A DNA stretch of 64,000 nucleotides from Bdellovibrio sp. (GCA_043747435.1 JAYTPD010000021.1:75643-139642), one strand, 5' to 3'. Positions 39,663-62,279 are shown, numbered from the stretch's first letter. Numbers and translations: made by a program. The notes: generated from the sequence alone by a model not told the origin.

Positions 39663-39747
39663 GCCCAGTTGGTGGAATCGGCAGACACACTAGGCTTAGA
39701 ACCTAGCGCCGCGAGGCATGGGGGTTCGACTCCCTCACTGGGCACCA
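39663..39747 (+). tRNA. tRNA-Leu (anticodon UAG), class II with long variable arm, CCA encoded
   Basis: Hand fold: acceptor GCCCAGT/ACTGGGC; anticodon stem CTAGG/CCTAG with loop CTTAGAA; T arm GGGGG-TTCGACT-CCCTC; discriminator A plus CCA. Confidence 0.9.
39731..39747 (+). repeat. attL-like core: 17-bp 3' end of tRNA-Leu(UAG), repeated at 54270-54286
   Basis: TCCCTCACTGGGCACCA is identical at both positions in direct orientation. Confidence 0.75.
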
Positions 39748-40246
39748 CTTCCGACAGTACTCGAACCCACACGCGGGGTCGGACTGAACGGAAGAATTTT
39801 TCCTTCTTTTTCATTTAAATTTTGAGTTTGGTTTCCGGGTGATGGGGGTCCATCAGTTCCGGTGGCCTTGTATTGCTCTTTCGATGGAGCGTACATGCCG
39901 ATTTTTATTTTCATCGGGTGAATCTCGATGAACTTCACAAGGTTCGTGAAGATAGGTCTTTGTTTTTCTTTCGGTGCGTTTTCTAGATTTATGAGCGTTC
40001 GCTCGATCTTGGCTTTTAAGCCGTCTTGGTCAATGTCTTAGGTCATAATCTATTCAAGCTGAATCAATATAGGCTGTCTAAGGCTTTACCAGTGTCAAAA
40101 AGAGTCATCTCAACGGAAATTATCAGCCATTTCAAATATAAACCTTAATGGTGGCTTTTATTTTAAAACTAAAAAACCGATAGGAATATAGGAATTGCTT
40201 AAATTAGGAATTTTATGTTATTCTATAAAAGCATATGGAGGCTAAA

Positions 40247-40531
40247 ATGGCGGCAAAACAAGCTAAACTCTTAACCGTGGCAAGCAATGGACAAATTAGT
40301 ATTGGTAAGACTTGGGCTGGTCGTCAAATAGTCATTGAAGAGATCGGCGACAGCGAGCTTCATATCAAAGCAGGTTCTTTTGTTCCAGACTCTCAAAAAA
40401 CTTTTCATACAGTTGAGGCGAATGAGGCCTTGTCCGAGTTTAATAACTGGAGCGAAAACAAACCAAAATCTATAAAATCTTCTGATGTATTTGCTAAACT
40501 AAGAAAACAAAAAACAGCTCGTGGCAAATAA
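40247..40531 (+). CDS. AbrB/MazE (SpoVT-AbrB fold)-like antitoxin candidate
   Basis: GGAGG RBS 6 nt before the ATG at 40247. N-terminus LLTVASNGQISIGKTWAGRQIVIEEIGDSELHIK resembles the swapped-hairpin motif. Confidence 0.5.
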   Translation: MAAKQAKLLTVASNGQISIGKTWAGRQIVIEEIGDSELHIKAGSFVPDSQKTFHTVEANEALSEFNNWSENKPKSIKSSDVFAKLRKQKTARGK

Positions 40532-40892
40532 GAAAAATTCCATATCCAGTCAGCACGAACTAGTTCTTTGTGATTTGAACTTTCCAAGACTACAAAATGA
40601 ATTATTGGAGCTTGAATCAACGGAGTTTGATCAAGTCGAAGAGACTGCAAAAAAAATTGAAAAAATGACTTGGGATCAAGTTTACAAAACATCTTCGAAA
40701 ACTCAAAAAAGAGGGATCAACTGGGAAGTCATTGAAAATCAAGTCACCCAGCTTGGTAAAAAGATCGCATCAATTCGTATTTCTAAAAAATTCCGAGCTC
40801 GTGTTTGTCGTGATGGCAAATTCATGAGATTTATTTCGCTTCATCCAGATCACGATAGTGCTTATGAAGAAGATGGCGGCGAAGACTTATAG
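40521..40892 (+). CDS. RelE/ParE-superfamily-like toxin candidate
   Basis: GTG start overlaps the upstream stop by 11 nt. C-terminus ASIRISKKFRARVCRDGKFMRFISLHPDHDSAY resembles the ySiRi..yRa...i..HD.aY end of RelE/ParE-fold toxins. Confidence 0.35.
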   Translation: MANKKNSISSQHELVLCDLNFPRLQNELLELESTEFDQVEETAKKIEKMTWDQVYKTSSKTQKRGINWEVIENQVTQLGKKIASIRISKKFRARVCRDGKFMRFISLHPDHDSAYEEDGGEDL

Positions 40893-41085: not shown

Positions 41086-41784
41086 CTACTTCGGGTTCTC
41101 GCGCACCAATCTTCTCATAACACTACCCTGTCCTCCAAAAGGAACAGGGTTTTTTATTTCCCCATTTCCGATCACGAATCTCAATTTATAAGTTCCGGTT
41201 TCCTGGCAGGGCTCCGCCACGACCGCGTTGAACAGCTTGCCGTAAGCCCCTTTGATATGGACCGGATCGGCCTTTTGGGCGATCAAACTCTGGATCTTTT
41301 GGGCAGCCTCGAGCCGGTCTTTGAATTGATCATAAAATGTGTCCGTAACGACAGATTGGCTTCGCTCGAGCGTATCAAGTTGCGCTTGAAGCTTCGAAAT
41401 TTCGGTGTCGAGCCTATCGACTGTCGTTTCAAACTCCTGGGTGTATTGGCCGCGTTTTTCGCGAGAGCCGTCGGCTAATAAAGCTTCAAACCTCAACTCA
41501 GCTCGTCTTTTTTCTGCCTTATGGCCCTCGATCATATCGACAAACCTTTGCTTCTCGCATTTTAGCAGTTCGTGACGAGTGTCGGATTGCGAATGTCGCT
41601 TAATGGCTTTCAGCAATTTTTCTGAATCTTTGATGACCTGAACAACGGCCTTGGATGCCCCAAGTTCGGCCTCATCGGCATCAATACGAAGTTTTTTGTC
41701 CTTGTTAAAATAATAGTTCTTTCGGCCACCGTTTCCGTTGGCGCCGGTTCCGTGAAAAGTTGAGCCGTCAGGCAACTGAATCAA
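41086..41784 (-). CDS. Hypothetical coiled-coil protein (232 aa)
   Basis: Long ORF visibly more GC-rich than its flanks. About 40 codons near its 3' end are repeated at 52338-52458. Confidence 0.55.
   Translation of the reverse strand: MIQLPDGSTFHGTGANGNGGRKNYYFNKDKKLRIDADEAELGASKAVVQVIKDSEKLLKAIKRHSQSDTRHELLKCEKQRFVDMIEGHKAEKRRAELRFEALLADGSREKRGQYTQEFETTVDRLDTEISKLQAQLDTLERSQSVVTDTFYDQFKDRLEAAQKIQSLIAQKADPVHIKGAYGKLFNAVVAEPCQETGTYKLRFVIGNGEIKNPVPFGGQGSVMRRLVRENPK
41103..41223. repeat. 121-bp direct repeat, copy A (inside the intact 232-aa gene)
   Basis: Aligns without gaps to 52338-52458 with 5 mismatches by hand alignment. Confidence 0.85.
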
Positions 41785-42053
41785 GCCATGAAGAAGGTAT
41801 CAGCTTCAGATAATAATTTTTTCCAATCATCATCCGGTTCGCGCTTATTATTTTTCACATCGGCTTTAGATTCCAACTCTGCACGGTGGGGAAAGTACCG
41901 GAAAATAAAAGTTAGGTAAGGAACATCATTTTTTACAAAGTGATAGTCGGTAACTGAGATAATTTCTTTATCTTTTATGAATTCGCGAACTTCTTCGTCA
42001 TTGAACCCGCCGTAAAGCGTATCAAAAGCCAAAGAGATGACTTTGATCAACAT
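41781..42053 (-). CDS. Hypothetical protein (90 aa)
   Basis: A 4-nt overlap with the downstream 232-aa gene suggests translational coupling. No motif recognised. Confidence 0.45.
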   Translation of the reverse strand: MLIKVISLAFDTLYGGFNDEEVREFIKDKEIISVTDYHFVKNDVPYLTFIFRYFPHRAELESKADVKNNKREPDDDWKKLLSEADTFFMA

Positions 42054-42319
42054 GATTCCCCCTTAAATCAATGATAAGCCGTCCTCTTGCTCTAAATACT
42101 TTCGGCACCTAAGCATGGCTTAAGCAACGTGCTACCATCTCGATTTTTAATAAAGTTATTTTTTAAACCCAGAAAAAATAAAGAAATGGGTATTGCCGCT
42201 AAAGACTGAGCAACCAAGTGAATCGGTTAAATAAATTTGAAACTAAATTGAATTTAGCAGGTGTTTTTATTTACGCGGGGCGAAAAACGGTCAAAAAAAT
42301 TAAAAATTTTGGCTTACGC

Positions 42320-42383
42320 CAAAGGAATTTGAGGACTACAGCCGCGCTTTCAGCGGGCCTACGTCTTTCCTCAAATTCCTTTG
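42320..42383 (-). terminator. Long stem-loop downstream of the giant AAA+ gene (terminator or structured element)
   Basis: Perfect 16-bp inverted repeat CAAAGGAATTTGAGGA (42320-42335) / TCCTCAAATTCCTTTG (42368-42383). The 32-nt spacer contains a small inner hairpin (CCGC ... GCGG). A T-rich tract follows on the minus strand. Confidence 0.4.
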
Positions 42384-42424
42384 CCTCCAGCCATTCTAGT
42401 GTAAAAGGTAAAAAGAGCCAAGAG

Positions 42425-45400
42425 TTACGGGCTAATCCTCACGAGACGGAACCCCACATCGTTGCCAAGAGCACCAGGCGGGCCGTAGCTGCGATCACCG
42501 GAACGCAAGCGCTGCGCATCGTGGTACCAACTACCGCCACGCATGACGCGGGAAGAGCCCTTTACAGGGCCTTGTGGATCTTGTCCACCCTTGAGTTTTT
42601 TATTGTCCCAATCTTTATTCCATTCCCAAACATTGCCTTCTAGATCAAAGAAAGGCTTTCCATCAATCATGCGGGGTTGAAGCGTTGCTACTGCATGCGT
42701 TTTATTGCCTGAGTTTCCAGAAAACCAAGCGTGGTTCGGCACATCAGCCTCGTCGTCGCGATCAAAATGCTTTTCGTTAGCATTCCCACGATCACGCATC
42801 GTAAATTCCCATTGGGCTTCGGTTGGTAAATCGTAAACATCGCCTTTTTTATGTCCGGGGATTAGCTTGTCTAACAAAGCTTGATCTTTTGCATCGCCGG
42901 AATTTGAAAGCTTATTTAAACCAACTAAAAATTCTTTAATATCTTTATAGCTGACCTGTTCAACTGGATGGTCAGGCTTCATCTGAACATCAATGCCTTC
43001 TATATTTACCGTCGTGCTATCTGTACCAGTTTTAAATTTTGATGGATTAATTTTGCCAAGATCTTTTTCACCCATTGCAACTTTAAGTCGAGACCACATC
43101 ATTTGCGTCACTTGTGTCTGCATCATCGCAAAAGGTTTTGTGATTTTAGTATCAATTTGAGCATCACCCATTTTGAATTTTCCAGGAGTTATTTCATGGA
43201 AAGTCATTTTCTTAGCTAAGTTCACTGGATCAAGAGCTTCTTTAACAACTTTTTTCTGCTCTTCTTTTTTCTTTTCTTCCTGTTTACCAGTGTCTTTAGT
43301 TTCAGCTTGGATTTTTAAAATGATCTCTTTCATTTTTTCTTTTAATTGATCACGTGTCATAACTTTATGATCTTCAAGATACTTAATAAGCTCGGCCTCT
43401 TTTTTAACGTAATCCTGTTTAAGCGCAGTTAACTGTAAAGAACTTGCACCCTGAATTTTTTCTGTTTCAAGTTTTAGTCTGAATCTTGATAAGTTATCAA
43501 TAGCTGAGGCAACTGATTTTTTAATATCTGCTGGCACTTTACTTTGGTTTAAACCTGGGAATAGCTCAGGATATTTTGTAATTTCTGACTTGTACTCGGA
43601 CATAAAGTCGTGCGTGACTGAATTGACCACTTGAACGTAATCTCTGGCTTCATCAATCATCATTTCTAAATGAAATCTTGTGCGTGAATCCAGTACGCCT
43701 GATCCCAGAAGTCTTTCAATGACTTGCGAATCGTTTTTAAATACTAAAGTACCATCTTGATCGTATGCGCTTGTAATTTTTTGTGGAGCCCAGTAGCCAA
43801 GACCTTCAAAGAACAGATTTAAATCTTTCATCTCAACCGTAGTTCTAATATCTTTAAAAGCCACACCTTGCATCAGTTGATGAACGATGAATCTAGCCTT
43901 AAACTGATCAATCAATTTAATCACAGTTCTATCCGATGCACTTCCAGCGGCGGAAACATAGTAATCTGGAAATTCACGTGCATCCATTTTGTTAGCCTTA
44001 CGAGTTTCTTCTTCTTTTTTAATTCTTAAGGCCAAGAATTTTTCTTGAATCTTTGCTAACGCCTCTTTAACTGCTGGATTTTCAAATTCAACTTGATCAA
44101 CCAAAGGCTTAAGCTCGCCAACAGCTAAAAGACCTTTCCAGTTTGGTGAAATTCCTTTTTCAAGATTAGATAAAAACTGAGTTAAAGCTTGCTCTGATGA
44201 AATTTTGTTCGAGACGTAAACTTTGTTCGCTGCACGGTCCATGACCGCTTCGCCCGTTGATCTGTCTTCGTGATAAGAATCTAGAAACTCACTCGGCATT
44301 TTGTTTGATGTTAAAATAGCTGTTCTTAAAGCTGTTTTAATAACTTGGTTACCCGCAAAAACTTCACGTTCATTCAAAATCGAAAGAAGTGCTGTAATCG
44401 TTTGCGGATTGGCTTTATCAACTTCATCTAAAATTGCGAAAATAAATTTTTCTGATGCTAAGCTTGTTGATGTTTCAATTTCTTCAATACCATCGTTTAA
44501 TTGCTTCTCGATTTTTGGAAAACCAACTAAAACGCCTTCTGGTAATAACTTATGGAACTGAAGCAAAAATCGCTCAAACACTTTTGGCTTTTCATGGCGC
44601 ATTTTTTCTAAAACTGCATGAATAAATTTTTGATCCGCTTTTTTACTGGTTAAAACTTTTTTAGTAAAAGCGTCAATCTGATCAGCGTTCAACTTCTTAA
44701 GCTCTGATTTTAAAATCACTTCCGCTAACGCAGTTTTTGCTCCGCCCGGAGGACCAAACACATAAAGATGATTTTCCGATAATATTCCTGTTAAATGGGC
44801 TTCGATAGAATGTTCAAGCTCGACAAACCTTTGCTTGATGGCGCGAACTTCGTACCCCATCCAGTCGTAGTATCTTCCAACTTTCTCTTTTTCAGGAGCT
44901 GTCATCATTTCACGTCTGAAAGCTCTGATCTCTTTAGATGATCTTGGTGGCAGTAGCTTCTGTGCGGCTTGGGCTGGGCGCTGTGTGTTCTTGTCAGATT
45001 GTTGATTTAATGTCTCTGCAAATTGCTGTAAGTCCTGTTTAATACTTTCAAGCTCTTTCGCCGTTCGTTCTTTCACTGTGCCTTTAGCTAAAAGTTTATC
45101 AATAGATGTTGAATCAACTTCAAACTGAGGCTTTGTCAAATCAACTTTATTTGTGGCTAGGATTTCGTTCAGTCGATTTCCAATCGTGTTGTCATCAACT
45201 GAGTAGTCTTTAAATTCAGGAGTTTTGCTATCAACAATCCACTTACTTTGGCCAGCCTGATTTTCTAATTTTAAAATGATTTGCGTGTTTCCTTCCAGAT
45301 CTTGAAGGAAAAGCTTTCCGTCATACGGCGAGTATTCGACCTGAAGCTGCGATTTTATACCAAGGTCTGATTGGACTTGAATTCCATGAGCCGTTATTTT

Positions 45401-46588
45401 GCCGTCTTTAATTTCAGTGACTTTAAAAGTTTTAAGTCTAACTTGAGATGGACCAATGTAGAGTGCGCTTTTTGCTAATAATGCTAAATCTTCTTTCTGC
45501 GGAGTTAGACGCACTTTTTCAAATGGCACACCCTGCATCAACTGATGAGCTACAAGTGAAGCCTTAAAAACTTGAACCATTCTTCGTACAGAACGATTCG
45601 AGAACTGATTAGCCGGAAAGTATTCACTTTCGGCTTCATCGTATCTGACTTGTTCCCTAGATTTATCAGCCTTACTTGTAACGTAGCGATCAAAAGTTCT
45701 AGCAATTTCTACGATGTCTGCCATCATGTCGTCTGAAATTTTAACTTTATTGACTAATACTTCTAAAGCTCCCAGAGGAAGATTGATTTTTAATTTTTGT
45801 GGATTTTTAACAAGGTCATACATTGCAATCGTTTCGCGACTTGATAACTGCTGATTCGGGATGTGAATTTTAATTGCCATACGATCAAGTAATGCTTCGC
45901 CTGATGGACGATCAGAATAAAAACCTTGAATGAATTCACCTGTTGTTTTGTTCGACGTAAACACGCCGCTAGCTAAAATACTATCGACAACCTTAGATCC
46001 TAGAAAAGCTTTTCTTTCATTTAATACAGATAAAAGAGCATTTAAAACGGCCGGGTTTGATTTTTCAGCTTCATCAGCGATCAAAAATAAAAATTGATCC
46101 CCTACAAGTGAACTTTTGGTTTCAATTTCGTATTTTCCTTCTTTCATCATACTGGAAAACTTTTGAAATCCTGAAATTTTTCCTTCAGAAATTAATTTAT
46201 GAAATTGAAGCAAAAAGATCTTTTTATCACCCTCAGGAATAGAATTTAAAACTGATTGAAACATGATCCGAGATAAAAATGTTTTAGCGCCGCCGGGCTC
46301 TCCATTGATCCACACAAATTCTTTAGCTAAAATAGCAGTTGTCAGTGCCTCAATAACCTGTGATCTTCCGTAGACGGCTTGATCAATCTGCTTTAATGCA
46401 TTAACTGATTCTGCCCAAGTCACCTGTGATGATCTAGCTGGGGCTTGAACCAAAGCTTGTGGCGATACCTTCGAAGACACCTTATCTATAAATAGATCTT
46501 CACATCTATTTGTGGCATTTGCTGAAAGAGCATTTCCAGTTAAAGCTAACAATAATATAGAGGTCTTTAAACTAATTATTTTCGACAT
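42425..46588 (-). CDS. Exported giant protein: signal peptide + NRCEDLF motif + two RavA/MoxR-like AAA+ modules + C-terminal FGE/SUMF1-like (formylglycine-generating-enzyme fold) domain
   Basis: Signal peptide MSKIISLKTSILLLALTGNALSANA. Walker A GEPGGAKT (aa 96-103) and GPPGGAKT (aa 612-619). Walker B/sensor blocks LIADEAEKSNPAVLNALLSVLNER and AILDEVDKANPQTITALLSILNER. RavA-like SNRSVRRM / SDRTVIKL helices. FGE-fold motifs at aa ~1127-1387: LPTEAQWEF, GNVWEWNKDW, RVMRGGSW, GFRLVR. Confidence 0.85.
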   Translation of the reverse strand: MSKIISLKTSILLLALTGNALSANATNRCEDLFIDKVSSKVSPQALVQAPARSSQVTWAESVNALKQIDQAVYGRSQVIEALTTAILAKEFVWINGEPGGAKTFLSRIMFQSVLNSIPEGDKKIFLLQFHKLISEGKISGFQKFSSMMKEGKYEIETKSSLVGDQFLFLIADEAEKSNPAVLNALLSVLNERKAFLGSKVVDSILASGVFTSNKTTGEFIQGFYSDRPSGEALLDRMAIKIHIPNQQLSSRETIAMYDLVKNPQKLKINLPLGALEVLVNKVKISDDMMADIVEIARTFDRYVTSKADKSREQVRYDEAESEYFPANQFSNRSVRRMVQVFKASLVAHQLMQGVPFEKVRLTPQKEDLALLAKSALYIGPSQVRLKTFKVTEIKDGKITAHGIQVQSDLGIKSQLQVEYSPYDGKLFLQDLEGNTQIILKLENQAGQSKWIVDSKTPEFKDYSVDDNTIGNRLNEILATNKVDLTKPQFEVDSTSIDKLLAKGTVKERTAKELESIKQDLQQFAETLNQQSDKNTQRPAQAAQKLLPPRSSKEIRAFRREMMTAPEKEKVGRYYDWMGYEVRAIKQRFVELEHSIEAHLTGILSENHLYVFGPPGGAKTALAEVILKSELKKLNADQIDAFTKKVLTSKKADQKFIHAVLEKMRHEKPKVFERFLLQFHKLLPEGVLVGFPKIEKQLNDGIEEIETSTSLASEKFIFAILDEVDKANPQTITALLSILNEREVFAGNQVIKTALRTAILTSNKMPSEFLDSYHEDRSTGEAVMDRAANKVYVSNKISSEQALTQFLSNLEKGISPNWKGLLAVGELKPLVDQVEFENPAVKEALAKIQEKFLALRIKKEEETRKANKMDAREFPDYYVSAAGSASDRTVIKLIDQFKARFIVHQLMQGVAFKDIRTTVEMKDLNLFFEGLGYWAPQKITSAYDQDGTLVFKNDSQVIERLLGSGVLDSRTRFHLEMMIDEARDYVQVVNSVTHDFMSEYKSEITKYPELFPGLNQSKVPADIKKSVASAIDNLSRFRLKLETEKIQGASSLQLTALKQDYVKKEAELIKYLEDHKVMTRDQLKEKMKEIILKIQAETKDTGKQEEKKKEEQKKVVKEALDPVNLAKKMTFHEITPGKFKMGDAQIDTKITKPFAMMQTQVTQMMWSRLKVAMGEKDLGKINPSKFKTGTDSTTVNIEGIDVQMKPDHPVEQVSYKDIKEFLVGLNKLSNSGDAKDQALLDKLIPGHKKGDVYDLPTEAQWEFTMRDRGNANEKHFDRDDEADVPNHAWFSGNSGNKTHAVATLQPRMIDGKPFFDLEGNVWEWNKDWDNKKLKGGQDPQGPVKGSSRVMRGGSWYHDAQRLRSGDRSYGPPGALGNDVGFRLVRISP

Positions 46589-46750
46589 AGGTTCTCCATA
46601 ATTACATTCGATACAATAATTATGCCGCCATCTGTTTATGTATCACTTTAAAACATTCGTTTAATTTTTTAAAAAAAGTGTCTCAGTTCGATACACTTAG
46701 TTGATTTTTTGACAGCTCACGAGGCCCCAGTTTTGCAAAACATACATTTG
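46589..46750. promoter_or_regulatory. Divergent promoter region between the two giant genes
   Basis: A 162-bp AT-rich spacer between divergent starts. It contains two direct copies of TTCGATACA (46607-46615 and 46687-46695). Confidence 0.4.
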
Positions 46751-49700
46751 ATGAAAAAATTTATTTCGTACTTATCTTTAATATTAGCTCTTCATTTTAT
46801 AGGCGCCAATGCTCATGCGGCCAATCGTTGCGAGGATCTATTTTCACCCACTTCTACAGCTAAAACTGAAAACAAATCTTTAACTTCGACTAACGAATCT
46901 TGGGAACAACTTTATAAAAAATCTGATCTAAGTCCAAGACCCGCATTGTGGCTAAAGATTAGACAGTCGTTAGAAAAACACGTCACTCATCTTCAAAACC
47001 CTTTAGAAACGGCTGGCACTGATGCGAATAAAATTGGGGCCGTTTACAAATCGATGGTCTTAGAGCTTCCACTTTTAAAGACACTGATCGAAGCTGATCG
47101 GCTGCCAAGATTAAGTCATGCTGACTTTATTACTTTAAAAAGGCTAACCGCTAATCAAATTATTTCTATCAGCCACAAACCAAACTCGGCACTTCAAGTT
47201 TTTGCTAGCCTTGAAGCTTTAAAATATATTTCTTCAATCGAATCTCGCGTAGAATTCCCAAGAACTAAAGAGGAAATCGAAAAAGAGACTAAAAAACAAG
47301 AGGAAGAAAAAAAGAAGCAGGAAAAGAAAGAGAAAAAGAAAGAGAAAAAGAAAAAAGACAAAAAAGATCAGCCTGAAGACGATGAACCGCCTAAATGGAA
47401 TAAGACTGAAGATAAATACAAGCCTGAAAATAAAGATATAAGTTCTGAAGATGGCGGTAAGAAAAAAAGTGCCGACATCTTAATGACGAATGCCGATGTA
47501 CCAAAACGTCTTTTAAGACAAAAAATCTATGATCTTTTTGATCTAAATAATTGGTCATCAAATACTGTTCAGCGAAACGCTTTAGTTCGTGAAAATTCTT
47601 TTACTAAAAAGATGATTATCGACTCACTTGGTGAATCTGAAGTCGATGTTCCAGTTCCTTATGGATATACACTTGTTCCTGGAAAACACACAGGTTATGA
47701 GATAAAAGAAATTGGTCCTGGTGAATTTAAACTTTATCCAAGTTCTAAAGATAAATCCATAATCGGCTTAAGTCGAATTATTGATGAACCACATAATTCA
47801 AGCTTGCGCCGTCCTGTTGGGACTGATGTAACCGCGCACTGGCCGAAACACTTAATCACTTTTACTGAAAGCTTGCGCGGGCTATCAGCCGTCGATGCGG
47901 CTGCGAAAATGGAAAAGTATATTTCTTTAGATGGTGGATTTTTATATTACTCAAAAGGTGATAAAATCGATGAGGCCGAGCTATCTAAGATAGACCAAAA
48001 AATGAATTCTCTTTTATCACAAATGCCAAAACCAATGGCTATGGCAAACGCAGGAGCCTTTAACTGCGACGGTGCTGCGTGGATTGGTGCTATTTTACTT
48101 CGAGATGTTTTAGGACACCAAGTGCGTATTGCAGGCGGCAGAACTTCGGCTGGAGTAAAAACAATTGAAAATGACAAGTTCCATGTTGTGAGATCATCTG
48201 ATCCAGCCCATGCTTGGCTTGAAGTTTATGATGGCAAAAACTGGAAGCCGTTTGATATGACTCCGAAAAATAATACGCCTGATTCTGATTCAGCTTCTAC
48301 TGATTTAGAAAGAGACGAGCCGCAAGATTCGCCGCCAAAAGACAGTAAGCCTGATCAACAAAAAGGTGAACAAAAATCAAAATCTGACAGCAAAGATAAA
48401 GATGCTGAGAAAAAAGACGAAGAAGCCAAAGAAGAAGATGGCAAAGACGGCGAAGAAAAAGATAAGTCTGATAAAAAAGAAGCTGGCGAAGACAAGGGCG
48501 ATAAATCTGGAAAAGATGAAGTCATTGATGGCGAGACCAGAAAAATTGATGAGCTTATTAAAGCCAAGTCTACACAAAGACAAAAAGACGAATCGCACTT
48601 AGCTTTGATTGATAAGCTTTTAAAGCGAAATGAATTGATGTTTTTAGAACATCTTATTTATGACGGCCATCAAACCAAATTTATGGAAGAATCGAATCAA
48701 GTTTTAACAAGCTTAAAAGCTCAACCAAACTGGAAAAATCAAGTCGAGCGTTCTGAGCAAAAAATATCTGGAATTCTAAATGAATCAAAATTTTCTAAGT
48801 TTGGTGGCTTAAGTCATTTGATTAACGAAATCCGAGTTGATTTCGGTCAAAATAAATCTCGCGACGCAAGACAAAAAATGATGATTGCAGAACGTCTTTT
48901 ACTTAACTTATCTGAATACCGTAATTTAACACGTGCAGAAATTGAATCTTTAACTACAATCCAAAAAATCTCGTCAATGTTGGATCAAGTGAGGCATAAA
49001 AATTCTAAAGAGTTCGATGTGGTCGATGAGCTACTTAAAGATTTACCAGGTAATGTTTCAAAAGAATGGCTACGACGCCAGTACGGAAAAGATTTTGACC
49101 AATTAGGCACTTCGGCAAATATCAAACTTGCAAATGACTTAGTTTCTGGAAAATTAAAGCCCCTTCTTCAAATGGGTGCTGTAAGTGATTTCGTTGATAT
49201 GACGTTAAACTCATCTCAAGAGCCGCAATGGAAAGACGAACCTACTTTAAATAGAAGTATTTTGCCAAAACCACGTCAAGATTTAATCGTAACCCGTAAT
49301 CCACTTGATTTTGCAAAAATGCTTTGGAATTTACGCCCTGGTGAAAATATGTTTGCGCCCACTTTGCAAGGCCGTCAATTTGCTATGGGAAGCTTAGAAA
49401 CCCGCCGTGTTCCAAATCCTAAAAACCCAATCGAGAGAAAAGTTTCTGTTGTGTACTATGATATTTCAGGTTCTATGAACGGTCATCCTTTAGAAACAGT
49501 CGATGCGCTTTTAATGGCTTTTGCAGACACAGCATTATCAGAAGTAGATGCCATCGGTAGACCAACACATGAAATTTATTTAATCCCGTTTGATGATAAA
49601 ATTTACGAAGGCGTTCATATGTCATCACGTGAGGATGCAACAAATTTCTTAGCTAAAAAAATGAATATGCGAACCCAAGCAGCGGGTGGAACAGATATTC

Positions 49701-50392
49701 AAAAAGTCATTGAAAATTTCTACAGTTTAATTTCTTCAAGTTACCAAAATAAATCAGGCCAAGGTCGCGAAAAGTTATTTCAAAAGGCGAATATGGTCTT
49801 ATTCACTGACGGCGGCTCACAAATCGACATGCAAAGAATTGAAGAGGCTAGAAAAAAAATCCCAAGTGCCGTTCAAATTAACATGAATTTTGTGTCGATT
49901 GGTGATTCAGTAAATGAAACTCTTAAAGCTTTATCCTCGAACAGCAAGCTCTCAACAACGAAGCCGACATTCAGAAAAATGAATTCTCAGATGATTAGCT
50001 CGGTTGTTGGCGTTTCATCAAACTACGATCCAGCGGCTTTTGCGACTGCGGAAAAGATTTCTGGCAGAACTTTGGCTGAAATTAACGAGCAACTTCAAAA
50101 AATCAATGTTGATCCTAGACAGCCGGGAAACAAAGACCAAATTGATAAAGCCTTATCGCAGATCCAAATAACTAAATCAGATGTTAGTAAGCTATCTGGT
50201 CTTCGTGAAATTTTAAATTTACAAAAACTTGAAACTGTCATTGATGACATGAAAATTAACCAAGTCACTAAGCAAAGATTGGTTCAGGCCATTGTTGAAT
50301 CCTACACACAACTGACCGGAAGAAGCTGGAAAGATATGACTTATGAAGAGAAAGAAGCCTTAGAAAAATTAAAAAAATGGTCAAGCCAATAA
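46751..50392 (+). CDS. Exported giant protein: signal peptide + NRCEDLF motif + transglutaminase-like cysteine protease core + C-terminal vWA (MIDAS) domain
   Basis: ATG at 46751 gives MKKFISYLSLILALHFIGANAHA. Transglutaminase triad FNCDGAAW (Cys codon 48065-48067), HAWLEVY (His 48209-48211) and FDMTP. vWA MIDAS is DISGSM (from 49460), GGTD and LFTDGG. Two K/E/D-rich low-complexity linkers. Confidence 0.85.
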   Translation: MKKFISYLSLILALHFIGANAHAANRCEDLFSPTSTAKTENKSLTSTNESWEQLYKKSDLSPRPALWLKIRQSLEKHVTHLQNPLETAGTDANKIGAVYKSMVLELPLLKTLIEADRLPRLSHADFITLKRLTANQIISISHKPNSALQVFASLEALKYISSIESRVEFPRTKEEIEKETKKQEEEKKKQEKKEKKKEKKKKDKKDQPEDDEPPKWNKTEDKYKPENKDISSEDGGKKKSADILMTNADVPKRLLRQKIYDLFDLNNWSSNTVQRNALVRENSFTKKMIIDSLGESEVDVPVPYGYTLVPGKHTGYEIKEIGPGEFKLYPSSKDKSIIGLSRIIDEPHNSSLRRPVGTDVTAHWPKHLITFTESLRGLSAVDAAAKMEKYISLDGGFLYYSKGDKIDEAELSKIDQKMNSLLSQMPKPMAMANAGAFNCDGAAWIGAILLRDVLGHQVRIAGGRTSAGVKTIENDKFHVVRSSDPAHAWLEVYDGKNWKPFDMTPKNNTPDSDSASTDLERDEPQDSPPKDSKPDQQKGEQKSKSDSKDKDAEKKDEEAKEEDGKDGEEKDKSDKKEAGEDKGDKSGKDEVIDGETRKIDELIKAKSTQRQKDESHLALIDKLLKRNELMFLEHLIYDGHQTKFMEESNQVLTSLKAQPNWKNQVERSEQKISGILNESKFSKFGGLSHLINEIRVDFGQNKSRDARQKMMIAERLLLNLSEYRNLTRAEIESLTTIQKISSMLDQVRHKNSKEFDVVDELLKDLPGNVSKEWLRRQYGKDFDQLGTSANIKLANDLVSGKLKPLLQMGAVSDFVDMTLNSSQEPQWKDEPTLNRSILPKPRQDLIVTRNPLDFAKMLWNLRPGENMFAPTLQGRQFAMGSLETRRVPNPKNPIERKVSVVYYDISGSMNGHPLETVDALLMAFADTALSEVDAIGRPTHEIYLIPFDDKIYEGVHMSSREDATNFLAKKMNMRTQAAGGTDIQKVIENFYSLISSSYQNKSGQGREKLFQKANMVLFTDGGSQIDMQRIEEARKKIPSAVQINMNFVSIGDSVNETLKALSSNSKLSTTKPTFRKMNSQMISSVVGVSSNYDPAAFATAEKISGRTLAEINEQLQKINVDPRQPGNKDQIDKALSQIQITKSDVSKLSGLREILNLQKLETVIDDMKINQVTKQRLVQAIVESYTQLTGRSWKDMTYEEKEALEKLKKWSSQ

Positions 50393-50789: not shown

Positions 50790-51014
50790 TTACGAAGATT
50801 TTTTCCAAATCGTTTTAGGCGCCAGATTTTCTTCTTTGCAGTTTCTTAAAAAATCATTAACCAACGTCTGATAGGGAGTACTTGTTTTCTCACCTAGTTT
50901 TTTAAAATATTCAATTACATCATTATCAAGCCGAATGGTGACGCTTTTTTTAAGCTTGCTTGCGTAAGGGTTGGGCTTAAGTTTCATTTTTTTTAAATCA
51001 TATTCTTTTCTCAT
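50790..51014 (-). CDS. BrnA-like antitoxin (ribbon-helix-helix type)
   Basis: KKSVTIRLDNDVIEYFKKLGEKTSTPYQTLVNDFLR resembles BrnA. It lies immediately downstream of the BrnT-like gene. Confidence 0.6.
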   Translation of the reverse strand: MRKEYDLKKMKLKPNPYASKLKKSVTIRLDNDVIEYFKKLGEKTSTPYQTLVNDFLRNCKEENLAPKTIWKKSS

Positions 51015-51029
51015 AAAATACCTCTCAAG

Positions 51030-51308
51030 TTAAAGATTTTCAAAATCATGTCGTTCTTTTTTGGTAGCTTTTCTTGCGCTGATAATTCTGATTACATTTT
51101 TTTCTTCATGCGCAATGTGAACAACGAAAAGTAGTTTCTTATTGTAGCTATGGCCAATCAAAATCTGGCGATGTTCATCTTCTGAGTGATCTGGGTCAAA
51201 AGCGATTTTGGCTAAGTCATCAAAAAATACTGTTGAGGCCTCTTCAAAAGAAACCTTATGCTTTTTTAGGTTTTGGTCGGCTTTCCGCGCATCCCATTCA
51301 AACTTCAT
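51030..51308 (-). CDS. BrnT-family toxin (DUF497)
   Basis: MKFEWDARKADQNLKKHKVSFEEASTVFFDD ... IRIISARKATKKER matches the BrnT family pattern. Confidence 0.85.
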   Translation of the reverse strand: MKFEWDARKADQNLKKHKVSFEEASTVFFDDLAKIAFDPDHSEDEHRQILIGHSYNKKLLFVVHIAHEEKNVIRIISARKATKKERHDFENL

Positions 51309-52686: not shown

Positions 52687-53076
52687 ATGCCCACAGCAAA
52701 TGCAGCTTTATTTAATACTGTATCATCTCAAGATCTAGGAAAGTTTTTTTCTAAAGGCGGCGAAGTTGAAGCTGAAAAAGTTGTTAAATTTTTAAAATAT
52801 AAAAAAGAAGACGTAGCTGTTGCTTCAGATACACCTGTATCATCAATTCGTTATGATGAAAAAATGACTGCGGATTTAAAGCAAAGAATGGTCGAATGGG
52901 CTACCGCAATTAACGATGTGGCTTCTTACTTTAATGATCTAGACCGAACTATATTATGGTTTCAGGTTTCCAACCCACTATTAGGCGATATTTCGCCTAG
53001 AGATATGATTCGATTGGGTCGCTTTAAAAAATTACAAAAATTTATTCAGACTGCTTTAGACGAAAATAAGCGATAA
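52687..53076 (+). CDS. Xre/MbcA/ParS-like antitoxin (DUF2384-type toxin-binding domain)
   Basis: GAGGAG RBS. C-terminal LWFQVSNPLLGDISPRDMIRLGRFKKLQKFI is typical of antitoxins partnered with RES toxins. Confidence 0.6.
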   Translation: MPTANAALFNTVSSQDLGKFFSKGGEVEAEKVVKFLKYKKEDVAVASDTPVSSIRYDEKMTADLKQRMVEWATAINDVASYFNDLDRTILWFQVSNPLLGDISPRDMIRLGRFKKLQKFIQTALDENKR

Positions 53077-53079
53077 AAA

Positions 53080-54057
53080 ATGTCTACGCGTAAGCCTAAG
53101 AAAATTAAATTTAACTTAGAAAAGATTTTTAAGAAAAAGAAATCTAAGGCTGCTACGTATCTTCTAGAAAAAGGCACTTTAACTGAAATGCGTGCTGCCA
53201 AAGAATGGACAGCCAAGCTGCTTGATTTTCACTGGCGATTTTATTCTGAGCTTGCCTATCAGCGAAATCAAAACTTAGAGGCTTTAAAAGAGGCCATTTT
53301 AATCCAAAGTACATCTAACTTTGAATTTACTAACTGGCAGCGAGCCGTAAAATATAAATTTAGTTTGCATCCTTTAAGCGTAGTCGGAAGTTTAAATTAT
53401 GTGGGTGGCCGCTTTAATTCAGGAACTGAAATTAATTCTCAAATACCCGCCTTCGGTTGCCTGTACATTTCGTTAGATAAAGAAACATCGATTCAAGAAG
53501 CTTTATGCCAAGATAGTGAAAATAAAAGTAAAAATTTTACTCCACTTGAATTCGCGCTTACCAATTCGCAGTCAGAAACATTTGTGTCAGTATCTGGTAA
53601 ATTGGATAAAGTTTTTGATTTAAGAAAGAAATCTAATTTAAAAAAACTTGTCGCTGTTTTTAAGAAATTTAAGATATCAAAAGAATTAACAAAATTAGCC
53701 AATGAAATTTACGCCGACGAACCTGAGTTGGTTAAATCTGAGCAATTGCTGCTAGATTCAATTTTAGAAAGAAACTGGCGAAACAAGCCAGTTCAATTTG
53801 ACATACCTTCGAATTCTCAAATTTTTGGCTACCTGGCGTACTTAGCAGGCGTTGACGGCATTATTTATCCATCTAAATATACTGGTAAAGTATGTTTGGC
53901 CATATTTCCTAAAAACTTTGAAAATGGAGATTCATTTATAAAACTAGATGACGCGGCTCCACACGCTAAAGTGCCAGGTCGTATTGACGGCAAAAGCTGG
54001 CGATTAAGTGAACTTACCTTTGAAGAAATATCAAACTCTGGCGGAATCGTACACTAA
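53080..54057 (+). CDS. RES-domain toxin with long N-terminal extension
   Basis: R-E-S signature in order: GGRFNSG, SLDKETSIQEAL, GIIYPSKY. It starts 3 nt after the antitoxin stop and is 325 aa. Confidence 0.6.
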   Translation: MSTRKPKKIKFNLEKIFKKKKSKAATYLLEKGTLTEMRAAKEWTAKLLDFHWRFYSELAYQRNQNLEALKEAILIQSTSNFEFTNWQRAVKYKFSLHPLSVVGSLNYVGGRFNSGTEINSQIPAFGCLYISLDKETSIQEALCQDSENKSKNFTPLEFALTNSQSETFVSVSGKLDKVFDLRKKSNLKKLVAVFKKFKISKELTKLANEIYADEPELVKSEQLLLDSILERNWRNKPVQFDIPSNSQIFGYLAYLAGVDGIIYPSKYTGKVCLAIFPKNFENGDSFIKLDDAAPHAKVPGRIDGKSWRLSELTFEEISNSGGIVH

Positions 54058-54269: not shown

Positions 54270-54286
54270 TCCCTCACTGGGCACCA
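54270..54286 (+). repeat. attR-like core: second copy of the tRNA-Leu(UAG) 3' end
   Basis: TCCCTCACTGGGCACCA is identical to 39731-39747. There is no tRNA body upstream of it. Confidence 0.75.
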
Positions 54287-58868: not shown

Positions 58869-58953
58869 GCGCGGGTGGTGAAATTGGTAGACACGCAGGT
58901 CTCAGAAGCCTGAGTCGAAAGATGTGCAAGTTCAAGTCTTGTCCCGCGCACCA
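58869..58953 (+). tRNA. tRNA-Leu (anticodon CAG), class II, CCA encoded
   Basis: Hand fold: acceptor GCGCGGG/CCCGCGC; anticodon stem CAGGT/GCCTG with loop CTCAGAA; T arm GCAAG-TTCAAGT-CTTGT; discriminator A plus CCA. Confidence 0.9.
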
Positions 58954-60671
58954 AATTGGCAAGTATTCGAACTATAATGCCCTAAAAATTGCGATGCGTT
59001 ACCTGAGTTTAAATCAGGTAACGCATTTTTTTTATCCAAATCCATTCCTAATGAATCTGACAACGCTTGAGCCTTTTTATTCTGACTTTCGCCATGATCT
59101 AGTTTTATCAAAAATATCTTCACATAGGATTCGCCAACCTTAAAATGCACTTCGAAACCATCGGCCAGAACATGGATTTTGTGAACCAAGTATCGGATCA
59201 CTTTCTGCCGAATTTTCAAATTATCATCTCTTCTTAATATTTCGCTCATAGCCTTTAAAAATCTTTGAAAATCCTGTAATTCGCAAGGCTCATCTTTCAC
59301 GAAACCAGACGACTGCATTTCGGCAAGCTTGCTCTGAGCTTCGCGCTTTTTTTCTTCTAACTTCTCCATCTGTTTGTAAATTGGTGTCGGCGAAATATTT
59401 TGTGGCAGTGACGAAAGCCTTTCAGCCATGACCTCAAGCTGACGATCCACGTTGAACGTCACATGATTATATTTTTCTGCCTCTTTTGATCCTGGGTTTA
59501 ACTGATGCGCGCGTCTTGCCGAAATCAATAATTCTTGTGCAAATTTTTCTTCGCCGAAAAGATTTACGATTTCATTCCAAAGCGAAGGTTCTAAAAGTTT
59601 GGCTTGAACTCTGACTGGGTTACAGGTTCTTTGAAGCTCTGGGACGTGAGCACCCGGAACTGTATTTGAGGCGTGTTCGTAATATCCAACTTTGGTTGTA
59701 TTTCCGTGAGCTGATTTTCCTATCATACGGTCTCCACATTTTTTGCAAAATACGAGCCCCGATAATAAATAAGGGTATCTGTCTGCCATAGAGTCTTTAT
59801 TCTTTCTGTGATTTTGACTTAAAAGTGCATTTGCTTTGTCAAAAGTTTCACGGTCAATGATTGCGGGCCAAACGGCTTCAGTTTCTTTAGTTTCTCCATT
59901 TTGCGTAAAGCTTTTTACGCCGACATAAAATTTAGATCGCAAAATGCAGCCAAGATTTTTCACCGTGTAATATCCAAGGCGTGTTCTAAGGCCGCCACCT
60001 TCACGAGCTGGCTTTATTCTATAATGTTGCTCATTGAGCCACTTCGCAGCGTTTCCTAGTGTGCCTTCAGAAATAATGGCTTTGAACGCCGCTTTCACAG
60101 AGGGAGCCCACTCATCATCAATTTCAAGAAAGCCTGGTTTGTCCTGAATTCGCTTGTAACCAAAAGGGATCGCGCCACCGTTAAAAAGCCCACGCTGTGC
60201 TCTAATATTAAAATTTGCAGACACGCGTTCTGAAATTTGACGTCTTTCAAACTGCGCAATATTTGCGACCGTAAATAGGACCATTTCGCCAGCGGCGGTC
60301 GTTGTATCAAAATTTTCTCTAAGAGACTGAAAACCGCAGCCGTTATCTTTCATCATCTGCCAGATATCAGAAAAATCTTTAATGGATCTTGAAATACGCG
60401 ATAACTCACTCACCATAACAAGATCAGTTTCACGTTTTCGAATCGACATTAAAAGTTTTTGAAGCTCTGGGCGATTGGTGTCCTTTCCGGATTTTGCACG
60501 GTCAATGTAGATCGCAACAATATCACCAAAGTGACCTTCCATATTTTTTAATTTCACAGTCATACGAAGTCGCTCTTCTTGATTTTTAATTGAACCTTCG
60601 GGATTTGAAGCTTGCTCTTCCGTTGAGACCCTGATGTACAAAGAAATTCTTCTGGCTTTAGAGACTTTCAT
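58932..60671 (-). CDS. Large serine recombinase (resolvase catalytic domain + recombinase domain + zinc ribbon + coiled coil)
   Basis: The ATG at 60671 follows GGAGGC. Catalytic RISLYIRVSTEEQ ... VMVSELSRISRS, recombinase domain GGAIPFGYK, zinc ribbon CKKCGDRM ... YYEH. The stop codon (58932-58934) lies in the T loop of the tRNA. Confidence 0.85.
   Translation of the reverse strand: MKVSKARRISLYIRVSTEEQASNPEGSIKNQEERLRMTVKLKNMEGHFGDIVAIYIDRAKSGKDTNRPELQKLLMSIRKRETDLVMVSELSRISRSIKDFSDIWQMMKDNGCGFQSLRENFDTTTAAGEMVLFTVANIAQFERRQISERVSANFNIRAQRGLFNGGAIPFGYKRIQDKPGFLEIDDEWAPSVKAAFKAIISEGTLGNAAKWLNEQHYRIKPAREGGGLRTRLGYYTVKNLGCILRSKFYVGVKSFTQNGETKETEAVWPAIIDRETFDKANALLSQNHRKNKDSMADRYPYLLSGLVFCKKCGDRMIGKSAHGNTTKVGYYEHASNTVPGAHVPELQRTCNPVRVQAKLLEPSLWNEIVNLFGEEKFAQELLISARRAHQLNPGSKEAEKYNHVTFNVDRQLEVMAERLSSLPQNISPTPIYKQMEKLEEKKREAQSKLAEMQSSGFVKDEPCELQDFQRFLKAMSEILRRDDNLKIRQKVIRYLVHKIHVLADGFEVHFKVGESYVKIFLIKLDHGESQNKKAQALSDSLGMDLDKKNALPDLNSGNASQFLGHYSSNTCQFGARDKT
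58994..59033 (+). terminator. Strong intrinsic terminator hairpin, potentially bidirectional
   Basis: ATGCGTTACCTGA (58994-59006), 7-nt loop, TCAGGTAACGCAT (59014-59026), then T7-8. On the other strand a TTTTT tract follows after 5 nt. It lies inside the recombinase ORF. Confidence 0.6.
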
Positions 60672-61035
60672 TTTTAGCCTCCGTGATGTTCCAAAGAATT
60701 GAATCAACATTTTCATGAACGCTTACAAATCGAAGTTGGTGATTTGTTATTAACTTAAAAAAGTTCGAAAGACCTTCTGATGATCGCGAAATTCGATTCA
60801 TTCTAGTGACAAAAACGAAATTTATTTTACCATTGATGATGTCATGTTGAAGTCGCAATAGTTCGGGACCGTATTTCATCCCAGACTGCTGATGATCTTC
60901 ATAAAAATCGATATCAGATTTTGTGAAGCCAAATCTTTGAAGACTATTTTCAAGCATTCTTTGTTGTTTTTGTAGATCTGCTAAATTTCCTGTTGCAGAT
61001 CTTAGGTAAAAAGCGACCTTGTTTGCGTTACTCAT
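60658..61035 (-). CDS. Serine recombinase catalytic-domain-only protein
   Basis: VAFYLRSATGN ... DHQQSGMKYGPEL ... VFVTRMNRISRSS ... RFVSVHENVDS covers a resolvase N-terminal domain. It has no DNA-binding domain and overlaps the large recombinase start by 14 nt. Confidence 0.6.
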   Translation of the reverse strand: MSNANKVAFYLRSATGNLADLQKQQRMLENSLQRFGFTKSDIDFYEDHQQSGMKYGPELLRLQHDIINGKINFVFVTRMNRISRSSEGLSNFFKLITNHQLRFVSVHENVDSILWNITEAKNESL

Positions 61036-61243
61036 TCACAACCTTCTTTCTGTTTAGAGATGCAATCTCAAAACCGACTGGTTGCGATGAAAAGTCTATT
61101 GATTTATTTGAGCCTGGCTGACTACAGAATTCATCATATATAAGACGCCCAAGATCTGCAAGTATTTCTGAAAACTCTGAATCCCTGATAACTTTAGGCA
61201 TCACTACGGTTTTTTGAATGGACCATTTCTTGCGTTTCGCCAT
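61028..61243 (-). CDS. Hypothetical small protein
   Basis: ORF only. Its stop overlaps the start of the small recombinase gene. Confidence 0.3.
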   Translation of the reverse strand: MAKRKKWSIQKTVVMPKVIRDSEFSEILADLGRLIYDEFCSQPGSNKSIDFSSQPVGFEIASLNRKKVVNE

Positions 61244-61317
61244 TGGTCATTCCTTCCAGAAAAGTTAACGCGAAACGTGGCTAAAAAACGGGGCTGGTTT
61301 TAAAACAACACTAAATC

Positions 61318-61782
61318 CTAAGTGTTGTTTTTGAATTCAGGCGACAGCGAACCAGCACCATTACTATTTTCAATGGTTTTTTTATTTCTGGCCTTTCGGA
61401 CTTTCTTAACTACGGTGTCGGATGCATTAGCCATGAGTTCACTACTTTTTTCAAAAAGATCTTTAAGCGAAACATCAGCCCCTTTTTCTTTAGCATCCTT
61501 GGCTTGAGTCTGAAGCCACGCAAGACACTTAAAAACATCGAAGTGCGTTTTTCTAAGCTCGTCGGTCTCTGCTTTCGAAAGCGCATTGTCATGAAGTTTT
61601 AAAATCAAATTCATGAAATCACTTTTACTAACCTCGGCAATGCCTTGCAGCGATTCATTGGCTGCCGCTGTTAGTGAATTTAATTTATCTTTTAGCTCAT
61701 CTTCAATCGTGACGCGCTCTAAGGCTTTATACACTTTTTTGTCTTTTTTGATTTCTCTAGGGTTTTCATTCTGGCTATTCAT
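61318..61782 (-). CDS. Hypothetical helical protein
   Basis: I prefer the ATG at 61782, preceded by GGAGG 8 nt upstream. No motif recognised. Confidence 0.45.
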   Translation of the reverse strand: MNSQNENPREIKKDKKVYKALERVTIEDELKDKLNSLTAAANESLQGIAEVSKSDFMNLILKLHDNALSKAETDELRKTHFDVFKCLAWLQTQAKDAKEKGADVSLKDLFEKSSELMANASDTVVKKVRKARNKKTIENSNGAGSLSPEFKNNT

Positions 61783-61783
61783 G

Positions 61784-62182
61784 TTACTTTTCCTCCGGCT
61801 TTGACCAGACTGCATTTTTATCGATTAGGAACTTCCAGTGCCCCGATACATACTCGTCACCTGAGATTTGATCTGGGACCCAAACTCTGCGCACTTCAGG
61901 GCGATTCAGTTTCGGCGCAAACTCTGTAAGCTTAGAACCAGCTTTGAGTTCACGTTCTTTCTTGATTTTATCAGCGCTTAGAAAGTATCCGATTGTACCG
62001 CCAATCAATGCGCTTGCCGCGAGGGACACATTCTTCTGTGAATTATCTTCCTGATTGTTAGCAACAATGCCGCCAACTCCAAGACCAACAGTTACACCAA
62101 GTAAAGTTCCCTTTGGAATACTTGAACACGCTGTGCTGAAATAGATCATAGCCATTAAAATATACTTAATTTTTAAATTCAT
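61784..62182 (-). CDS. Small lipoprotein with glycine-zipper segment
   Basis: Lipobox FSTAC and GVTVGLGVGGIVANN. Confidence 0.5.
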   Translation of the reverse strand: MNLKIKYILMAMIYFSTACSSIPKGTLLGVTVGLGVGGIVANNQEDNSQKNVSLAASALIGGTIGYFLSADKIKKERELKAGSKLTEFAPKLNRPEVRRVWVPDQISGDEYVSGHWKFLIDKNAVWSKPEEK

Positions 62183-62279
62183 TTTGTTCTCCGAAAATAA
62201 ATAGATGAATAAGAAGTCGGGACTGATAAGAATGAGACTGAATGGAGATGGGGCTGGTGAAATACGAGGGGGTATAGAG

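Follow-up and report, generated by a model that had tools for sequence, protein, structure and literature searches.

A double MoxR-type ATPase ending in a retroelement-type variable lectin domain, and its transglutaminase-like vWA partner, in Bdellovibrio sp.

A vWA domain carrying a metal ion-dependent adhesion site (MIDAS) is the usual docking partner of MoxR ATPases. Systems in which a MoxR ATPase and a vWA protein are coupled to FGS/C-type-lectin domains diversified by a diversity-generating retroelement (DGR) have been described computationally, and the diversified lectins were presented as putative antigen sensors (Kaur et al. 2020, PMC7159879; Dore et al. 2024, PMC10907252). Such systems are so far known from comparative genomics alone, mostly in multicellular bacteria, and are thought to be cytoplasmic. 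Here we analyse a divergent pair of long genes, A and B, lying in 64,000 nucleotides of Bdellovibrio sp. DNA (GCA_043747435.1 JAYTPD010000021.1:75643-139642), referred to below as the window. A encodes two MoxR/RavA-type AAA+ modules followed by a variable lectin domain, and B a vWA protein with a transglutaminase-like core. Bdellovibrionota are mentioned in neither of the two papers cited, and a search of the literature on Bdellovibrio with DGR or MoxR found nothing on the A/B system. We hold the anatomy of the two proteins given below, and the status of A as a DGR target, with very high confidence.

An earlier note on this stretch had proposed two open reading frames (ORFs), of 1387 codons on the minus strand and 1213 codons on the plus strand, and both are found exactly as it had them. 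A longer TTG start for B, at 46709, receives no support from the N-termini of homologues. The genes and their main parts are as follows (FGE, formylglycine-generating enzyme).

42425..46588, minus strand: gene A, 1387 aa; signal peptide, Cys tag, two MoxR/RavA-type AAA+ modules, adaptor helices, and a C-type-lectin (FGE-fold) domain with a DGR variable region at its end
45809..46411, minus strand: AAA+ module 1 of A, aa 60-260; Walker A GEPGGAKT, Walker B DEAEK, sensor-1 TSN
44189..44818, minus strand: AAA+ module 2 of A, aa 591-800; Walker A GPPGGAKT, Walker B DEVDK, sensor-1 TSN
43202..43519, minus strand: adaptor helical domain of A, aa 1024-1129; a homologue of it forms the N-terminal domain of the WD40 accessory proteins that distant relatives encode separately
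42437..43192, minus strand: C-type-lectin/FGE-sulfatase-fold domain of A, TvpA-like, aa 1133-1384; without cysteine
42434..42559, minus strand: DGR variable region, aa 1344-1385, GSSRVMRGGSWYHDAQRLRSGDRSYGPPGALGNDVGFRLVRI
46751..50392, plus strand: gene B, 1213 aa; signal peptide, Cys tag, helical domain, beta-sandwich, transglutaminase-like domain, helical domain, vWA/MIDAS, C-terminal helices
47828..48280, plus strand: transglutaminase-like core of B, aa ~360-510; Cys439, His487, Asp502
49433..49990, plus strand: vWA domain of B with MIDAS, aa ~895-1080; D904-I-S-G-S, T981, D1020

The C-terminus of A had been given an FGE fold and likened to catalytically inactive FGEs. The fold is right: the FGE-sulfatase family PF03781 matches residues 1133-1384 (Pfam, E 1e-29). 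The likeness to an inactive enzyme did not stand. Against the PDB, the best match of this region is TvpA (2y3c, E 1.9e-21), and true FGEs reach 4e-8 at most. The catalytic Cys pair is absent, the sole cysteine of A being residue 29, and a lectin domain without any cysteine cannot be an FGE enzyme. We conclude that the "FGE" end of A is a TvpA-type C-type-lectin domain, and that its last ~42 residues are a DGR variable region.

The evidence for the variable region comes from relatives. In close homologues the AAA+ modules are 93-99% identical, and the last ~45 residues form a mosaic of hypervariable positions set in a fixed scaffold (RVxRGGSW..A..LRSG.R....PG.R...VGFRLVR). A tblastn search with the variable region of A detected Asn-rich template repeats in relatives, such as GSNRVIRGGSWNNNASNLRSGNRNNWRPGNRNNNVGFRLV; a template repeat for the window would be expected to resemble GSNRVIRGGSWNNNA..NLRSGNRNN..PGNRNNNVGFRLV. 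Mismatches between template and variable region fall on adenines in 14 of 17 cases at locus L024 and in 15 of 17 at L018. When the window was compared with L005 (92% identical), differences were found at 14 of the 31 template-adenine sites and at 5 of the 104 other sites (Fisher p = 4e-7), the third bases of the variable codons being retained. Finally, within 90%-identity clusters, natural variants that are 100% identical across a 500-residue segment of the body carry six different variable regions; hence A-type proteins undergo hypermutation in natural populations.

Four metagenome loci (L017, L018, L023 and L024) have a complete retroelement cassette adjoining A. There, a gene for an HRDC-domain accessory protein, bAvd and a reverse transcriptase gene (RVT_1 and bAvd matches) sit directly upstream of the template repeats. 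L049 also has HRDC, bAvd and reverse transcriptase genes adjoining A, and there the HRDC accessory gene is interrupted by an insertion sequence; the template repeat was not looked for in that locus. At the level of the family, the features that define a DGR are thus present, namely an adenine-specific pair of template and variable region beside reverse transcriptase and Avd.

In three close lineages, independent events have broken the HRDC accessory gene: an IS3-type element in L005 (12982-14126), a Transposase_mut-type element in L049 (14835-16092) and a deletion in the window (41781-42053). In the L049 lineage, variable regions continue to differ. In L001, the pair is intact and there is no trace of a DGR cassette. 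In L003 (4943-14588; also L015), gene A is in tandem duplicate with a SnoaL-like gene after each copy; this locus has one B and no DGR within 10 kb, and its variable-region scaffolds look degraded (Trp lost, indels).

The two complete RavA/MoxR-like AAA+ modules announced for A are borne out by profiles, motifs and structure alike. Pfam reports bpMoxR (PF20030, E 1e-27 over three stretches, 97 bits against a gathering cut-off of 27) and AAA_5. The modules are paralogues of each other (35% identity, E 3e-46), and in both of them the Walker A Lys/Thr, the Walker B Asp-Glu, the sensor-1 Asn and the arginine of the DR motif are invariant among 66 sequences. An AlphaFold2 model of residues 26-1130 (predicted local distance difference test, pLDDT, 85; predicted template modelling score 0.83) has RavA (3nbx), Cytophaga MoxR (2r44) and BchI (1g8p) as its nearest PDB structures in Foldseek. 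Both modules are members of the MoxR/RavA clade. A is not an orthologue of RavA: with the NCBIfam RavA equivalog model it reaches 62 bits, where the cut-off is 681. The link that had been drawn to NTP-dependent conflict systems is apt, since the best Pfam model, bpMoxR, derives from that work.

In B, the predicted Cys-His-Asp core and full MIDAS are also present. Cys439, His487 and Asp502 are invariant in 56 sequences, PF01841 (Transglut_core) is the top Pfam family for all 16 representative transglutaminase regions (16/16, best E 2.4e-7), and the layout of the triad, with Cys at the N-terminus of a helix and His and Asp on or beside the following strands, fits the secondary structure of the AlphaFold2 model. 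In the same 56 sequences, D904-x-S-x-S and D1020 of the MIDAS are invariant and its Thr is 86% conserved. The model of B (pLDDT 77) matches the vWA/MIDAS structures of CLCA1, ANTXR and Rea1/MDN1 in Foldseek. With the whole model, Foldseek gave vWA matches alone and no structural confirmation of the transglutaminase fold, and a PDB search with a profile of full-length B returned nothing at E <= 1.

Both proteins begin with features that point to export.

46514..46588, minus strand: signal peptide of A, aa 1-25, MSKIISLKTSILLLALTGNALSANA; an N-terminal pattern common to nearly all 65 homologues
46490..46513, minus strand: N-terminal tag of A, TNRCEDLF, aa 26-33; Cys29, the sole cysteine of A, is 98% conserved
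46820..46843, plus strand: N-terminal tag of B, ANRCEDLF, aa 24-31, with Cys27; it follows the signal peptide, aa 1-23

Signal peptides had been proposed for A and B; by inspection they are of Sec type, and this holds for every accessory protein as well (about 120 homologues and accessory proteins). A single Cys follows 1-8 residues past the AxA site, within the motif [RK]-C-[ES]-[DE]-[LI]-F, in A, B and the accessory proteins; family components with this tag were seen also in L004, L010, L011, L012, L013 and L028. Both window proteins have the tag NRCEDLF, and unrelated secreted proteins of the neighbourhood are without it. A lipoprotein reading of the tag was rejected: relative to the lipobox [LVI][ASTVI][GAS]C, position -1 is mostly Arg or Lys, and position -2 mostly Asn, Val or Leu. 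Cysteine is otherwise almost missing, with 1 residue in the 1387 of A and 2 in the 1213 of B (the tag Cys and the catalytic Cys), compared with an average of 1.34% in neighbouring proteins (P = 1.5e-7). Of 66 A homologues, 46 have no cysteine but that of the tag. Moreover, the tags of A and B co-vary: they share 4.6 of 9 positions within genomes and 2.1 of 9 across genomes (permutation p about 5e-5). The tag-coding stretches of A and B in the window form an imperfect inverted repeat and differ at synonymous sites, which makes recent gene conversion unlikely as the sole cause of the identical tags. Together, the depletion of cysteine and the co-variation of the tags argue for an oxidising location and a dedicated role of the tag, which may be disulfide pairing, liganding of the MIDAS or transglutaminase, or sorting. 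An extracytoplasmic location of A and B is in our opinion likely.

These observations bear on a different reading, in which A and B form a cytoplasmic anti-phage or abortive-infection system, a ternary conflict system of the kind described by Kaur et al.: the lectin would sense an invader, MoxR would transduce the signal, and the transglutaminase-like peptidase of the vWA protein would be the suicide or effector arm. Such systems are the source of bpMoxR, the best Pfam model for A; DGR-diversified lectins with MoxR and vWA are the putative antigen sensors mentioned above, and the pair sits in an island rich in toxin-antitoxin genes. A signal peptide at the N-terminus of every component in every lineage speaks against it, and the extreme cysteine depletion fits an oxidising compartment. 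In addition, Pfam scans of A, B and their neighbours detected no VMAP protein in the island, nor any VMAP, iSTAND or FtsH third gene beside A/B among the island genes, and none of the PADLOC defence models matched A, B or the small neighbours. We judge a cytoplasmic conflict system to be quite unlikely.

The family is small. In a collection of 5.8 billion proteins, we counted ~65 homologues of A and ~55 of B, and every named one is from Bdellovibrionales, Oligoflexia or a metagenome-assembled genome (MAG) of Bdellovibrionota. An exhaustive HMMER pass with a single-sequence query gave just 242 relatives of B among 1.84 billion representatives, of which 74 at E <= 1e-30, hence our calling the family small. 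Among 185,579 species genomes there are 4 true relatives, all MAGs; a Heliorestis match at 23% identity is a generic AAA+ match and not a family member.

The MoxR-vWA pairing invoked in the earlier note is confirmed by synteny, as a homologue of A adjoins a homologue of B at every assessable locus (~23 distinct loci, a locus being assessable when the extent of the contig allows adjacency to be judged). The expected divergent arrangement was recovered in part: clades with 50% identity to the window or more have A and B head-to-head, and in clades farther off both genes point the same way. Nucleotide identity with the closest relatives is 84-87% and runs from about the stop codon of A to that of B (42414-50387 for L001/L006, 42187-50393 for L005); in L005, homology extends ~240 nt further downstream of A, through a hairpin described below. 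The flanks are unrelated between the window and its close relatives, save a 90-aa ORF common to L005. A and B thus behave like a self-contained module.

As a rule, MoxR-vWA pairs serve as assembly chaperones, and one may ask whether A and B are a housekeeping pair of the envelope, similar to RavA-ViaA or MoxR-DUF58-TgpA, that matures or inserts a periplasmic or outer-membrane complex, with the lectin as a substrate-binding module and its variability incidental. The strict co-inheritance just described and the invariance of the catalytic motifs down to about 30% identity are consistent with this proposal. They have to be set against the tiny and patchy distribution of the family, the genomic context, which differs among relatives 84-92% identical and is an island here, and the dedicated retroelement, whose active hypermutation of the binding domain suggests a changing ligand rather than a fixed client. 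A housekeeping role thus appears very improbable.

The more distant relatives (30-68% identity) inform on the origin of the C-terminal part of A. Their A proteins have ~1000-1130 aa and are without the lectin domain, and they are accompanied by one to eight separate proteins of 400-500 aa, several of which match WD40 profiles; separate WD40 genes are present in L004, L011 and L013. A hidden Markov model built from 14 of these accessory proteins matches residues 1024-1129 of A (E 6e-12), the matching part being the helical domain that these proteins have after their signal peptides. The last 360 residues of A, adaptor helices plus lectin, are accordingly a third component that has become fused to it, with a lectin in place of the propeller. 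The pair is thus the reduced form of a multi-component family and not a stand-alone two-gene invention. An unfused architecture is seen in L028 (50-9231), where five separate lectin-domain proteins of ~410 aa, all bearing a signal peptide and the tag C-D-G-[LI]-M, are encoded ahead of a template-like repeat, followed by A-like and B-like genes. Single-module MoxR genes with a B-like partner of ~1160 aa occur in L034 (4496-9210), L035 (9776-14723) and L039 (3323-8345), with signal peptides on both genes in L035 and L039; in L034 the N-terminus of the partner alone is readable, the MoxR start being unclear. The export of MoxR-vWA pairs may thus not be confined to the tandem family.

The pair had been placed at the centre of a tRNA island rich in toxin-antitoxin genes, which can now be delimited to 14.5 kb by a 17-bp repeat, and next to A the window has kept remnants of the cassette.

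39731..39747, plus strand: attL, the 3' end of tRNA-Leu(tag), TCCCTCACTGGGCACCA
54270..54286, plus strand: attR, an exact 17-bp repeat of the tRNA 3' end, closing the 14.5-kb island
41086..41784, minus strand: C-terminal fragment of a large serine recombinase, 232 aa; phrog_95 integrase, profile positions 383-525 of 651, E 1.4e-5
41781..42053, minus strand: remnant of the first gene of the DGR cassette (HRDC-domain accessory), a 90-aa ORF that keeps codons 1-89 and ends before the HRDC domain
42310..42393, minus strand: conserved nested hairpin, just 3' of the variable region

In the 64 kb of the window, neither a reverse transcriptase nor a template repeat was found by a self-BLAST of the variable region and a scan for YxDD ORFs, and tblastn with the Avd and reverse transcriptase of L018 found neither gene. 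The serine recombinase fragment abuts the truncated HRDC accessory gene, which makes this point a likely deletion junction. Probably, one deletion took both the rest of the DGR cassette and the catalytic domain of the recombinase. Avd, reverse transcriptase, template repeat and the catalytic half of the island recombinase would thereby have been lost in this genome, leaving the binding head probably frozen and the island probably immobile. The exact A protein was found again in an independent read set, and this recurrence suggests a fixed variable region.

The hairpin lies ~35 nt past the stop codon of A (z = -4.7) and shows compensatory changes in 13 of its 30 pairs across five loci. It is probably a target-recognition structure of the DGR. 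It is built of a long AT-rich outer stem and a GC inner stem with a GAAA-type loop; it is kept in the DGR-bearing loci L017, L023 and L024 and absent from L001. Rfam, run over 39-55 kb, found tRNA alone.

The state of this locus raises the question of whether the pair is a functionless relic here, that is, cargo decaying after the loss of the DGR cassette and of the island recombinase. Both are indeed truncated, and the degraded variable-region scaffolds of the L003 paralogues are in line with such a decay. Against this, both ORFs, of 1.2-1.4 thousand codons, are intact and all catalytic, MIDAS and tag residues are kept; moreover, L001 keeps its pair without a cassette, which suggests that the pair is useful with a fixed binding head. 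The chance that A and B are a relic is in our view slight.

The attL/attR direct repeat has an E value of 3.8e-4. Between its two copies lie an AbrB-like pair, the recombinase and DGR remnants, A, B, a helix-turn-helix gene, BrnT/BrnA and an antitoxin-like/RES pair. No intact integrase is found in the island, only the 232-aa recombinase fragment, and the cut of this gene at the deletion junction would explain the want of a working one. The AbrB-like pair resembles a toxin-antitoxin pair with overlapping ORFs (40235-40892), BrnA/BrnT lies at 50790-51308, and the antitoxin-like gene with its RES-domain partner at 52687-54057. Farther away in the window, a second mobile element is present at tRNA-Leu(cag), 58869-63912. 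It has a 594-aa large serine recombinase overlapping the 3' end of the tRNA, a second resolvase fragment, a Replic_Relax-like gene and an FtsK/SpoIIIE gene, and it resembles an integrative mobilisable or conjugative element.

Taken together, we consider it reasonably probable that A and B are the core of a Sec-exported MoxR-vWA machine, specific to Bdellovibrionota and fitted with a hypervariable ligand-binding head. How it might work can be sketched tentatively, and we put the odds of this sensor-ATPase-enzyme coupling somewhat below even. The lectin head would bind a variable molecule outside the cytoplasm, such as a surface component of prey, competitor or phage. The AAA+ ring, engaged with B through the MIDAS, would turn binding into remodelling or activation of the thiol enzyme of B, which would cleave or cross-link the target, and the common N-terminal Cys tag would hold or sort the subunits together. 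We infer both the contact of A with B through the MIDAS and the coupling of ligand binding to the transglutaminase. More doubtful still is the complete picture of an all-exported, near-Cys-free AAA+ machine, joined or sorted via a co-evolving Cys tag, whose lectin is rewritten by a retroelement so as to track the surfaces of prey or enemies: this would be an adaptive recognition system, for predation or for defence at the level of the envelope, with an ATPase at work outside the cytoplasm.

Several points weigh against the exported machine and its proposed use. The Sec-type signal peptides (n, h and c regions, AxA site) were called by eye. Neither the periplasm nor the outside of the cell has a known source of ATP, although the Walker A and B motifs of both modules are invariant; this could mean that the machine acts in a compartment that contains ATP (prey cytoplasm, leaky bdelloplast), or that export is mispredicted. 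Profile searches had been suggested as a check of the domains, and they recovered AAA+ and FGE-sulfatase in A, but the scores of B are under the curated Pfam cut-offs (18 bits for VWA_CoxE, 17.5 bits for Transglut_core, and for PF01841 on the window protein a range of 17.5-21 bits against a gathering cut-off of 23). A PDB search with a profile of the transglutaminase region of B returned chance matches alone. The lack of any PADLOC match belongs here also. Reverse transcriptase and template repeat are missing from the window, and the case for ongoing hypermutation is one for related copies. Finally, the part in defence or against prey that the earlier note had put forward is putative, as is a role in predation or envelope defence, and the predatory lifestyle itself is taken from taxonomy alone.

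What is new in the A/B family is a hypervariable domain placed directly on a double ATPase, a thiol enzyme on the vWA partner, the apparent export of all parts, and its occurrence in a phylum known for predation. If export is true, one has to ask how an AAA+ ATPase works without cytoplasmic ATP, and whether programmed hypermutation helps predators to recognise prey or to sense enemies. The co-varying single-Cys tag offers a simple experimental handle on assembly, and the frozen copy of the window, next to actively mutating relatives, is a natural experiment on the loss of a retroelement.

Compared with known systems, RavA-ViaA of Escherichia coli has the same logic of a MoxR-type ATPase with a vWA partner, and RavA is the closest solved structure to the AAA+ modules of A. 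Unlike A, RavA is a single-module, cytoplasmic protein, and the pair is without lectin, transglutaminase or DGR. TvpA of Treponema denticola (PDB 2y3c), closest to the C-terminal domain of A, is also exported and also has its variable region at the extreme C-terminus, followed by a hairpin. TvpA is a small lipoprotein made of the lectin domain alone, whereas in A the lectin is the head of a 1387-aa double ATPase. Exported enzymes with a transglutaminase fold and a Cys-His-Asp triad are known in the LapG/BTLCP group of periplasmic transglutaminase-like cysteine proteases, and in TgpA-MoxR-DUF58 operons the gene of a transglutaminase protein is linked to those of a MoxR and a vWA-like protein; architecture and fusion partners differ from those of A/B in both cases, and no sequence or profile match was obtained. 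For a MoxR-vWA pair at work outside the cell we found a single precedent, going by a secondary account: p618/p892 of the Acidianus two-tailed virus, which acts in extracellular tail growth (Scheele 2011, as cited elsewhere). This is a system of an archaeal virus, without DGR or transglutaminase, and the likeness drawn here is one of description.

The VMAP-type systems of Kaur et al. and Dore et al. share with A/B the pairing of a MoxR AAA+ protein with a vWA protein, a TvpA-like domain of the FGS/C-type-lectin kind that a linked DGR diversifies, and a peptidase-type domain, transglutaminase-like thiol peptidases being named there as rare variants. They differ in that the variable lectin either belongs to the vWA protein or forms a separate target, and is not fused to a tandem MoxR as in the window; in that the peptidase is on a third protein, VMAP, and not, with VMAP missing, on the vWA protein; and in that MoxR has a single module and most components are predicted to be cytoplasmic, whereas signal peptides and Cys tag are found throughout the window family. 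The beta-propeller MoxR-vWA ternary systems (Kaur 2020; PF20030) resemble A/B in other respects: the AAA+ modules of A score best against bpMoxR, WD40 proteins are extra components in distant relatives of the window system, and the vWA partner has a long N-terminal helical region. In that class, however, the P-loop is GxxxTAKS, compared with GxPGGAKT in the window (GEPGGAKT, GPPGGAKT). The window vWA protein has no propeller, the model of B having helices alone after the vWA domain, and there is no third gene in the window for the third component of the class (variable N-terminus, transmembrane segment, TPR/beta-propeller). Its equivalent is the lectin module fused to A, and in the relatives the WD40 proteins with signal peptides. 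By the features that define them, the window system is a member of neither the VMAP nor the beta-propeller class. The earlier note had not recognised the combination as a described system; DGR-linked MoxR-vWA systems were in fact already described (Kaur 2020; Dore 2024), and what stands is that this particular architecture differs from them. A/B is an apparently extracytoplasmic version of these systems.

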